From: an uncultured Pseudomonadota bacterium
Lineage (GTDB): Bacteria > Babelota > Babeliae > Babelales > RVW-14
NCBI GenBank assembly: GCA_964446935.1
Contig: CAYUQI010000006.1
Coordinates: 218-64,217, forward strand
Length of the DNA: 64,000 nucleotides
Direction of reading: 5' to 3'
Part shown: piece after piece, positions 59,631-61,442 of the stretch
Position numbering within the stretch: the first letter of the stretch is position 1
How the letters are laid out: each line of letters starts with the position of its first letter
Translations under genes and position numbers: made by a program
The notes under the pieces: model-generated
What the model was told of the DNA's origin: nothing
Databases searched by the model: none
Seen by the model: the letters and a program-made list of their open reading frames with translations, nothing else

Positions 59631-61442
59631 TTATAAAATAGAACATCCCCATCCCCACTGCCCTGGTGGATTTAAAAAGTTATTGATAAGAGCAGTTCTT
59701 CTTGCAAGGTCCCCATTTATAAATGTATTTATTGCGCCTCGATGGGTAGTCAAATGATCGATAAATGTTTGATGTTGATTTTGTGGTAACACATCTTGCA
59801 TAGTTTGTAAGACGTGAGTTACTTGTGTAGTTTTTGCTGTCAAGTCAGCATTAAAAGCAGTGATAATGGCAGCTCTTGCTAGTGCATTAGCATTTAAGAA
59901 TGTTCTGACTTGTCCCTGATCAGTTAAATAATCGCAGAATATCAGGTGTTGATTTTGTTGGATTTGCTGTTGTATGCCATTTATTATTAGTTGTTGAACA
60001 TGATCTTTTATGAGTATTTCGCGTTGGGAGTCGTTATTTGTTTGGAGAAGTTGTTGTGCAAAATTGTTATCGTTACGTATGATTGGTGGTAATTCATGTA
60101 AGGTCCACTGTGCTATCTGAACTTGTGTTGGAGTTGGATTGTTTGTTGTGTAGATAAGCATTCTAGGGCGGAAATATCCTGATCTGCCCCAGGTGAGCAA
60201 TTCATTAAAGATTGCATGGCCGTTTGAAATAGTTGCATCATTACATAGAAACCATGAATTCCCATATCTTACAAGCGCTGTATAATGGCCGCCATTATAC
60301 AGGAGTATTGATCGTAAGGTATATGTTTTTTGTTGGGCATTAACGAAATTAAATTGCAGTTGTTCGCGGGGTTGTATTTTTTGTTGCCCTGGACATTCTA
60401 TCATGAGAACAGGCGCATAACGAGATTCTATCAGGCGCTGTTTTTGTACGTTATGCTGCACAAACTGAGCAACTTGCTGCTGCGTTGCTACAAGCATGGC
60501 GCTCACTGAGCCACAGAGTTGTTGGTCGATCATGTCTCTGATTGCATCATCCCCTTGATCATAATCAGCTTTAAATATAGTTGAAAAAAGAATATTACTG
60601 AAACAAGTACAATTATGTTGTGCGCAGCGCTGAAAGAAGCGTCGAATGAATTGTGCGCTATCATCATATTGGCCTGGTATTTGTAGTTCTTGGGCGGTGG
60701 CATTTATAAAATTTCGAGCGTCATAAGCATTATCTCCGTGTTGTGCTATCTGTTGCGTGGCGTTCCATAATTGATTATGCATATTGAGATTACACGTACA
60801 ATGAGGGCTGTGTAATGTGTTTTGCACACAGGCTATCCCCTGAAGCGCTGCATTGGCAAAGCAATAGTTGGCGTTGTTCATAAGTCCGACAAATGGAGTT
60901 ATCCCGGCAAAAGGCGCTACGATTCTTTGTTTTTTAGTGGGGGCGTTGTTAAGTGCGGATTGCTTTGATGCGGCTAGTGTTGTTGTTTGTGCGGTGGGTG
61001 ATGTTGACCGTTGACGTTTAGCATTCCTTTTTCTTGTGAAAGGAACGGCAGTTGTCGTTGTGTTTGTCGTCGATGAAGATGATGAGCTGCTTGTTTGAGC
61101 ATTGAAGTTTCTAGCAAACGTAACTATTTGACGATCGGTTAATTGCTTTTTTTGAGTAGCTTCTTTTTTAAGAATTGCATCGACAATAGGCAAAACTGGT
61201 TTTGAAACATCAAGCTTGGCGCTTTGCTGAATGGTATTTTGGATTGCAATAGCGCGGGCTCCAACGGCATTTGCAATTCGCCGTTGTGTGGTTCCGTTAT
61301 GTTTAAAATATATGGAGCGACCATTTACATCAGTTTGTTCAATATACATAGCTGAAAGAGACGAAAGCATGAATATTGAGACACAACTCAATAATAAAGA
61401 AAATATAAGTTTTTTAGCTGAAAACATAAGAATAACCCCCAA
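59631..61442 (-). CDS. eukaryote-type ubiquitin-specific protease (USP/UBP, peptidase C19) with C-terminal CaaX box
   Basis: Cys box GLMNNANYCFANAALQGI (Cys codon 60861-60863), QYDDSAQFIRRFF (QxDxxEF-like), and His box YNGGHYTALVRYGNSWFLCNDATI. It also has an N-terminal hydrophobic segment, a poly-Ser/Thr tract, basic clusters RKRNAKRQR and TKKQR, and a C-terminus ...GWGCSIL*. Confidence 0.8.
   Translation of the reverse strand: MGVILMFSAKKLIFSLLLSCVSIFMLSSLSAMYIEQTDVNGRSIYFKHNGTTQRRIANAVGARAIAIQNTIQQSAKLDVSKPVLPIVDAILKKEATQKKQLTDRQIVTFARNFNAQTSSSSSSSTTNTTTTAVPFTRKRNAKRQRSTSPTAQTTTLAASKQSALNNAPTKKQRIVAPFAGITPFVGLMNNANYCFANAALQGIACVQNTLHSPHCTCNLNMHNQLWNATQQIAQHGDNAYDARNFINATAQELQIPGQYDDSAQFIRRFFQRCAQHNCTCFSNILFSTIFKADYDQGDDAIRDMIDQQLCGSVSAMLVATQQQVAQFVQHNVQKQRLIESRYAPVLMIECPGQQKIQPREQLQFNFVNAQQKTYTLRSILLYNGGHYTALVRYGNSWFLCNDATISNGHAIFNELLTWGRSGYFRPRMLIYTTNNPTPTQVQIAQWTLHELPPIIRNDNNFAQQLLQTNNDSQREILIKDHVQQLIINGIQQQIQQNQHLIFCDYLTDQGQVRTFLNANALARAAIITAFNADLTAKTTQVTHVLQTMQDVLPQNQHQTFIDHLTTHRGAINTFINGDLARRTALINNFLNPPGQWGWGCSIL

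Follow-up and report, generated by a model that had tools for sequence, protein, structure and literature searches.

Bacterial effectors that end in a CaaX box can hijack host prenylation, as the initial annotation of the DNA considered here pointed out and as is established for Legionella and Salmonella (PMC13081727, PMC13423502). For Legionella AnkB and PelA-K and Salmonella GtgE, the host farnesyltransferase (FTase) or geranylgeranyltransferase I (GGTase-I) lipidates the Cys of the box, so that the effector is anchored to host or vacuolar membranes on their cytosolic side (PMC13081727, PMC13423502, PMC5506055), and Cys-dependent localization has been shown for the prenylated effectors of both genera (PMC13081727, PMC13423502). 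Bacterial ubiquitin-specific proteases (USPs) have also been described. Burkholderia TssM is a USP that reaches the host cytosol by type II, Sec-dependent export (PMC10719079), and SnUSP1-3 of Simkania negevensis have hydrophobic regions that are thought to mediate membrane attachment (PMC10643670). In eukaryotes, yeast Miy1 and human MINDY1 are prenylated deubiquitinases (DUBs) in which a C-terminal site places the enzyme on membranes (PMC11847538). Here we consider a gene near the end of a 64,000-nucleotide stretch of contig CAYUQI010000006.1 (the window). It encodes a predicted, very divergent USP, called the long USP to distinguish it from a shorter neighbor, and its last four residues are C-S-I-L. 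With confidence a little above even, we read its product as a secreted, eukaryote-like USP-type deubiquitinase that would be geranylgeranylated by the host at CSIL and tethered to membranes.

The C-terminal tail

The features of the gene that bear on the tail are as follows.

59631..61427, minus strand: long USP gene, 598 codons plus stop, probable start ATG 61427
59646..59675, minus strand: linker L585-NPPGQWGWG-594, immediately 5' of the Cys, rich in Pro, Gly, Asn, and Gln and with two Trp
59634..59645, minus strand: CaaX box C595-S-I-L598 (tgt tct att tta), Cys595 being the predicted geranylgeranyl acceptor
59631..59633, minus strand: TAA stop of the long USP

A C-terminal CSIL had been claimed in the initial annotation, and the codons tgt tct att tta taa on the minus strand bear this out. 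Cys595 is encoded at 59643-59645 (tgt), Ser at 59640-59642 (tct), Ile at 59637-59639 (att), and Leu at 59634-59636 (tta), and the interval 59631..59645 comprises the box and the stop codon. The protein therefore ends ...NPPGQWGWG-C-S-I-L-stop, with the Cys exactly at position -4.

How well does this tail suit a prenyltransferase? The sequence best modified by GGTase-I is the consensus Cxa[L/F/I/M/V]; the same study reports specificity in common with the mammalian enzyme and finds Ile or Val at a2 compatible with cleavage by Rce1 (PMC11304957). CSIL, with Ile at a2 and Leu at X, fits this consensus and is also Rce1-compatible at a2. The earlier proposal that Leu at X favors geranylgeranylation accords with the GGTase-I preference when a2 is aliphatic (PMC11304957). 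The PrePS criterion additionally calls for a flexible, accessible, mainly small or hydrophilic linker of ~11 residues ahead of the Cys (PMC1175975). In FLNPPGQWGWG, 7 of the 11 positions are P, G, N, or Q, the remainder being F, L, and two W. The AlphaFold2 (AF2) model, which is poor overall, ends its last helix at aa 585 and leaves residues 588-598 non-helical with predicted local distance difference test (pLDDT) scores of <50; a non-helical, low-confidence tail of this kind would be consistent with the PrePS linker requirement.

Retention of the box in an ortholog

The initial annotation had asked whether orthologs keep a Cys at -4. A word-indexed search over 5.8 billion protein clusters, together with an exhaustive HMMER search over 1.84 billion representatives, found one independent ortholog, P0002, a protein of 408 aa with 55% identity to the long USP. 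Its end is taken from the gene call within a 2021-bp contig of JGI sample 3300075153; the gene (268-1494) lies wholly inside the contig and is therefore complete. P0002 ends ...NAFKATQSS-C-T-L-F, and so the single independent ortholog does keep the Cys at -4. CTLF, with Leu at a2 and Phe at X, also fits Cxa[L/F/I/M/V]. The chance of such a fit in P0002 is ~0.001-0.002, from composition values that include the 2.9% Cys content of this protein. Another protein, P0001, was ruled out as an independent data point, being of the same strain-level lineage (99.8% DNA identity).

CSIL and CTLF differ at each of a1, a2, and X, every substitution staying within its class. The linkers are unlike in length and sequence (KATQSS in P0002, LNPPGQWGWG in the long USP), and P0002 has one C-terminal repeat unit to the long USP's two, a 33-aa unit being absent from it. 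In both proteins, the box comes directly after the last repeat unit. Judging from these sequences, the two tails are not just an unaltered inheritance from a common ancestor: with a1/a2/X, linker, and repeat number all changed, the box has stayed terminal through rearrangement. Among 67 remote USP relatives, many of them bearing signal peptides, none has Cys at -4. Selection on a CaaX box would be expected to leave just such a motif, specific to the pair and terminal despite rearrangement.

Is the motif beyond chance?

The window contains 58 non-nested open reading frames (ORFs) of at least 100 aa, of which one, the long USP, has Cys at -4. It had been claimed that no other effector-like ORF in the window ends in CaaX, and this is so (0 other C-x-x-x ends among the 58 ORFs). 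The argument built on it, that uniqueness excludes a compositional artifact, is weak, since chance predicts about one Cys at -4 per 58 ORFs (0.73 expected at a Cys frequency of 1.26%). When the window is pooled with 26 related loci, Cys stands at -4 in 6 of 439 ORFs, or 1.37%, versus a Cys frequency of 1.36%, and housekeeping ORFs have no excess. The full motif C-x-[ILV]-[LFIMV] is rarer, with a probability of ~0.0007-0.0011 per ORF and a 0.04-0.06 chance of at least one occurrence among the 58. The window evidence alone is thus only suggestive, and the signal beyond chance comes from the ortholog, not from the window. An excess of Cys at -15 in the 439-ORF set was traced to a conserved CxxC in the ProRS C-terminal domain and is irrelevant to the tail.

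What are the other proteins with Cys at -4? Half of the six are signal-peptide-bearing, eukaryote-like proteins, namely the long USP and the following two.

L008:17445-19226, plus strand: RING-finger plus multiple-ankyrin protein, 593 aa, ending C-S-I-Q, in candidate division TM6 metagenome-assembled genome (MAG) CAMDFF010000006.1
L007:3681-4574, minus strand: NodZ/FUT8-like fucosyltransferase, 297 aa, hydrophobic N terminus, ending C-I-C-L, in uncultured bacterium LaPlata_bin-3921

The remaining three are a RuvC ending CRIG, an AAA-ATPase/PD-(D/E)XK protein ending CKIL, and a protein without a Pfam match. The RING-ankyrin protein has a signal-peptide-like N terminus, and its CSIQ is a farnesylation-type CaaX box; no orthologs of it were recovered in a protein search that was swamped by generic ankyrin proteins. 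CICL may represent one more CaaX-type tail, or a double-Cys one, on an enzyme of eukaryote-like character. CaaX-type ends occur in 2 of 31 ankyrin or USP ORFs (the long USP and the CSIQ protein) versus 1 of 408 others, a post hoc comparison (Fisher p = 0.014) in which numbers are small and the ankyrin/USP classes were drawn after the data had been seen. It offers a hint of a wider link between CaaX ends and effector-like ORFs. Our literature search turned up no report of CaaX in connection with Dependentiae, TM6, or Babela.

Gene limits and domain architecture

Upstream of the tail and around the gene, the following features can be recognized.

61480..61508, minus strand: sigma-70-like promoter match TTGACG-17-TAGAAT, upstream of the long USP
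61350..61427, minus strand: N-terminal segment resembling a Sec-type signal peptide, MFSAKKLIFSLLLSCVSIFMLSSLSA, aa 1-26, from hydropathy and layout
61008..61037, minus strand: second basic run TRKRNAKRQR
60921..60941, minus strand: basic motif PTKKQRI, aa 163-169, immediately ahead of the USP core
60138..60890, minus strand: divergent USP (peptidase C19) core, aa 180-430
59853..59948, minus strand: repeat unit 1, HLIFCDYLTDQGQVRTFLNANALARAAIITAF, aa 494-525
59676..59774, minus strand: repeat unit 2, HQTFIDHLTTHRGAINTFINGDLARRTALINNF, aa 552-584
59567..59606, between the convergent recF and USP genes: symmetrical hairpin with an 18-bp stem, 25 nt past the USP stop

The ORF-finder span of the gene, 59631..61442, opens at TTG 61442. 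This codon lies inside a ribosome-binding-like GGGGG run that sits 8 nt 5' of ATG 61427, and the latter is the probable true start, giving 598 aa. The promoter is a consensus match only, with 9 such sites in the region versus 9.5 expected. The end of the gene appears real because the hairpin follows it and because the same gene on a contig from a second sample (L001, 99.8% DNA identity) has an identical end. A protein on an NCBI contig, P0190, is identical to the long USP. The hairpin is probably a bidirectional terminator for recF and the long USP; a further terminator-like hairpin, with an 11-bp stem and then a T run (59528..59552, plus strand), follows recF and immediately precedes the symmetrical one.

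Residues 1-26 look by their layout like a Sec-type signal peptide, in which a basic n-region leads into a hydrophobic core and then a c-region of small residues, and P0002 has the same n-region and hydrophobic layout at its N terminus. A lipoprotein reading of LLSC (aa 12-15) was ruled out, the ortholog having Val at -1 of its Cys. The extension that follows (residues 27-179) is of low complexity and includes a Ser/Thr run together with two basic motifs. The Ser/Thr-rich low-complexity run, SSSSSSSTTNTTTT (61050..61091, minus strand, aa 113-126), falls inside an ~120-aa N-terminal insertion that is not present in the ortholog. The basic motif PTKKQRI is PTKKRKI in P0002. Both versions bear what we take to be a resemblance to the simian virus 40 (SV40) nuclear localization signal PKKKRKV, any such role being speculative.

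The Cys box of the USP core, GLMNNANYCFANAALQ, contains C189 (60861-60863, minus strand). The His box, GGHYTALVRYGNSWFLCNDATI, contains H381 (60285-60287, minus strand), Y382 next to this catalytic His, and N396/D397. C189, H381, N396, and D397 are all invariant between the long USP and the ortholog. The His-box region matches the neighboring short USP at E 3e-11, every match from a profile search of the 1.84 billion representatives was a USP core, and P0002 has a precomputed PF00443 match. The best match in the Protein Data Bank is USP54, at an E value of only 0.82. Taken together, the long USP is best described as a highly divergent cysteine protease of the USP type, in which both the Cys box and the His box are intact, and as a predicted DUB. 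Between the two boxes lie ortholog-invariant His/Cys clusters, H206 with H209-C-T-C212 (aa 206-212) and C268...C273-T-C275 (aa 268-275), which could represent a relic or a modified form of the zinc-binding site found in the fingers subdomain of USPs. Beyond the core, aa 435-585 are predicted with moderate confidence to be helical and constitute an orphan C-terminal domain, with no relatives beyond the ortholog. The two repeats within it, built on a 33-residue unit, align with a score of 61 (z = 10.9).

Source organism and genomic neighborhood

DnaN of the window has relatives that are 57-77% identical, and RecF has relatives of up to ~59% identity; all are from MAGs labeled Candidatus Babeliales, Dependentiae, or TM6. 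The source therefore appears to be a Babeliales (Candidatus Dependentiae/TM6) bacterium. Dependentiae are obligate intracellular parasites of protists (PMC6561590, PMC4776705, PMC12172432), and going by the published lifestyle of the group, the source organism would be intracellular as well. In Chromulinavorax, signal peptides are present on 44% of coding sequences and on 78% of ankyrin proteins (PMC6561590), and components of the type II secretion system (T2SS) are conserved across TM6 genomes (PMC4776705). Among the ~30 window ORFs scanned, no genes for type III or type IV secretion systems (T3SS or T4SS) were seen.

A set of 26 Babeliales genomes (L002-L027) shares with the window a syntenic proS-xerC-...-dnaN-recF block. 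Downstream of recF (59631..64000) come the long USP, a 171-aa ORF with a signal peptide, the short USP, and a partial ORF at the end of the window. Because this segment has no counterpart in those 26 genomes, the USP pair can be placed in a variable accessory region. The two USPs are neighbors with one small ORF between them, and their predicted targeting differs. Other genes of note in the window are listed here.

62136..63110, minus strand: short USP, 324 aa, PF00443 match at E 9e-34, signal-peptide-like N terminus, ending ...FYELES, without a CaaX box
55501..56349, minus strand: ankyrin-repeat protein, signal-peptide-like N terminus, no CaaX end
50755..52287, plus strand: 510-aa ORF, faint Peptidase_C12 (ubiquitin C-terminal hydrolase [UCH] family 1) match at E 0.0017, below the cutoff
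38747..40432, minus strand: leucine-rich repeat (LRR) protein, no CaaX end

The ankyrin and LRR proteins are further eukaryote-like candidates. Homologs of the 510-aa product, with 22-32% identity, are found in syntenic position at nine related loci, and this product is possibly another ubiquitin-directed protein.

Proposed action and alternative explanations

What might the long USP do? In hand are the motif, its consensus fit, its retention in the sole ortholog, the intact catalytic motifs, the signal-peptide-like N terminus, and the taxonomic setting; from these we infer a secretion route, cytosolic exposure, lipidation, membrane localization, and the DUB activity and its targets. The pre-protein would leave the cytoplasm via Sec, using its N-terminal signal peptide; its most plausible way out of the bacterium would then be the T2SS whose components TM6 genomes conserve, or outer-membrane vesicles. 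In the protist cytosol, host GGTase-I would add a C20 geranylgeranyl group to Cys595, after which host Rce1 would cut off -SIL and ICMT would methylate the new C terminus. The lipidated tail, carried on the helical repeat stalk, would keep the catalytic domain at the cytosolic face of host membranes, perhaps aided in its hold by the two Trp beside the tail. So tethered, the USP could strip ubiquitin from membrane-proximal targets, for example, shielding the parasite compartment from ubiquitin-dependent autophagy. It speaks for this proposal that a ubiquitin protease would have substrates only in the host. The interpretation in the initial annotation stands as regards the tail, its consensus fit, and the retained Cys; its statistic of uniqueness was weak, and it had overlooked the N-terminal Sec-type signal peptide.

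Several observations weigh against a host-geranylgeranylated DUB. With regard to the tail, Cys at -4 is by itself not beyond chance in the window, the linker with its two Trp, Phe, and Leu is less hydrophilic than those of usual GGTase-I substrates, and neither a polybasic stretch nor a second Cys is found near the box. Conservation rests on a single independent ortholog (n = 1): pattern-based locus searches with the two-sequence alignment gave no relatives in GTDB genomes, JGI metagenome contigs (two regions), or IMG/VR, and no long-USP ortholog stands beside dnaN-recF in the 26 related genomes. As for the enzyme, the Pfam PF00443 (UCH) match of aa 180-404 (E 6.4e-4, 19.8 bits) is under the 23.9 cutoff, and the AF2 model built on the two-sequence alignment is poor (mean pLDDT, 39.6), leaving the USP core without a confident model. 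Finally, a Sec signal implies periplasmic passage, from which a further step would have to bring the protein into the host cytosol.

Could the tail be a coincidence? The C-x-x-x would then have no role in lipidation, the USP would be soluble or otherwise targeted, and the Cys would be common to the two proteins by descent and unselected. Cys at -4 does occur at background frequency (6 of 439 ORFs; 0.73 expected per window), clear chance cases exist in the RuvC CRIG and the AAA-ATPase/PD-(D/E)XK CKIL, one independent ortholog lies behind the conservation, and 67 remote bacterial USPs manage without the motif. We nonetheless consider coincidence rather unlikely, as both orthologs match the full GGTase-I consensus, with a probability of ~0.001-0.002 for the second, and as the sequence of the C-terminal region, its linker length, and its repeat number have all changed, yet the box is exactly terminal with class-conserving substitutions. 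Lower still is the probability we would give to another use of the terminal Cys, be it S-acylation by host palmitoyltransferases, a disulfide made in the oxidizing periplasm after Sec export, or a Trp-rich interfacial tail, WGWGC. The ortholog lacks the Trp residues but keeps the Cys at -4, an aliphatic a2, and a hydrophobic X, and the -4 spacing is specific to CaaX prenyltransferases, so that palmitoylation or a disulfide would not fix the Cys there. In favor of such a use, a WGWG run adjoins the Cys, runs of this type partition into membrane interfaces, and use of the signal peptide would take the protein through the periplasm. There is also the example of Legionella LpdA, whose C-terminal Cys is palmitoylated by the host (PMC13081727). 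A further alternative places the long USP where it never meets host prenyltransferases: it would remain periplasmic, attached to the surface of the bacterium, or confined to a vacuole lumen, its hydrophobic N-terminal segment would serve as signal or anchor, and the CaaX-like end would be irrelevant. The Sec-type N terminus, the lack of T3SS/T4SS evidence in the window, and the lack of an established means for Dependentiae effectors to cross host membranes all favor it. Against this, for a USP whose catalytic triad is intact, substrates are known only in the cytosol or nucleus of eukaryotic cells, the example of TssM shows that a USP secreted via Sec and the T2SS can be active in the host cytosol, and signal peptides are also carried by most Dependentiae ankyrin proteins; we give the idea little credence.

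The preferred reading, a secreted DUB that is geranylgeranylated by the host, can be taken further. A nuclear localization signal plus a CaaX box is a lamin-type signal for the inner nuclear membrane, which may speculatively be applied to the long USP. In the broadest version, Dependentiae, seemingly without injection-type secretion, would routinely pair Sec/T2SS export with host CaaX prenylation for their ubiquitin-system effectors (USPs ending CSIL or CTLF, a RING-ankyrin protein ending CSIQ), and the basic motif together with the CaaX box would give the USP a lamin-like targeting to the inner nuclear membrane, a destination without precedent for a bacterial DUB. We consider this broad proposal improbable as it stands.

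Comparison with known systems

So far, host prenylation is known to be hijacked by a small number of Legionella and Salmonella effectors, injected by a T4SS or T3SS; Salmonella SifA is a further one. If the proposal made here is true, it would extend this strategy 3-fold: (i) to the Dependentiae, a deep-branching, almost uncultured phylum of protist parasites; (ii) to a protein bearing a Sec signal; and (iii) to a USP-type DUB, a class of which only four bacterial members have been described (TssM and SnUSP1-3), all without a lipid anchor. A testable handle on the host site of action of a Dependentiae effector would follow as well, in a group whose ways of manipulating the host are barely characterized. 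The concept is already known and the evidence is purely in silico, and thus the value of the finding is moderate.

Like the prenylated Legionella and Salmonella effectors, the long USP has a CaaX box on a protein of a presumably intracellular bacterium, which has no enzyme of its own to use it. Legionella AnkB, which combines an F-box, ankyrin repeats, and CaaX, acts on the ubiquitin system, and the layout of the L008 RING-ankyrin-CSIQ protein is similar. The Legionella and Salmonella effectors are injected by a T4SS or T3SS and have no Sec signal, whereas the long USP has a Sec-type signal, belongs to the phylum Dependentiae, and is prenylated only by prediction. No USP-type protease was found among the CaaX effectors described in the literature searched.

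With TssM and SnUSP1-3, the long USP shares a predicted USP-fold cysteine protease with a divergent catalytic domain in an intracellular bacterium. Unlike them, it has a CaaX box; for bacterial DUBs, where membrane attachment has been proposed, it is by hydrophobic or transmembrane segments (PMC10643670). No close relationship is detectable, the profile search having given remote USP-core matches at E 5e-12 or weaker, and the C-terminal repeat stalk of the long USP is an orphan in comparison with these proteins. Miy1 and MINDY1 offer the likeness of a DUB domain joined to a C-terminal prenylation site, predicted in the case of the long USP, and USP32 is a further prenylated eukaryotic deubiquitinase. 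These enzymes are host-encoded and belong to other families or subfamilies, and nothing suggests that the bacterial gene derives from them. Overall, the long USP would be a predicted addition to the known class of CaaX effectors, not a new mechanism.

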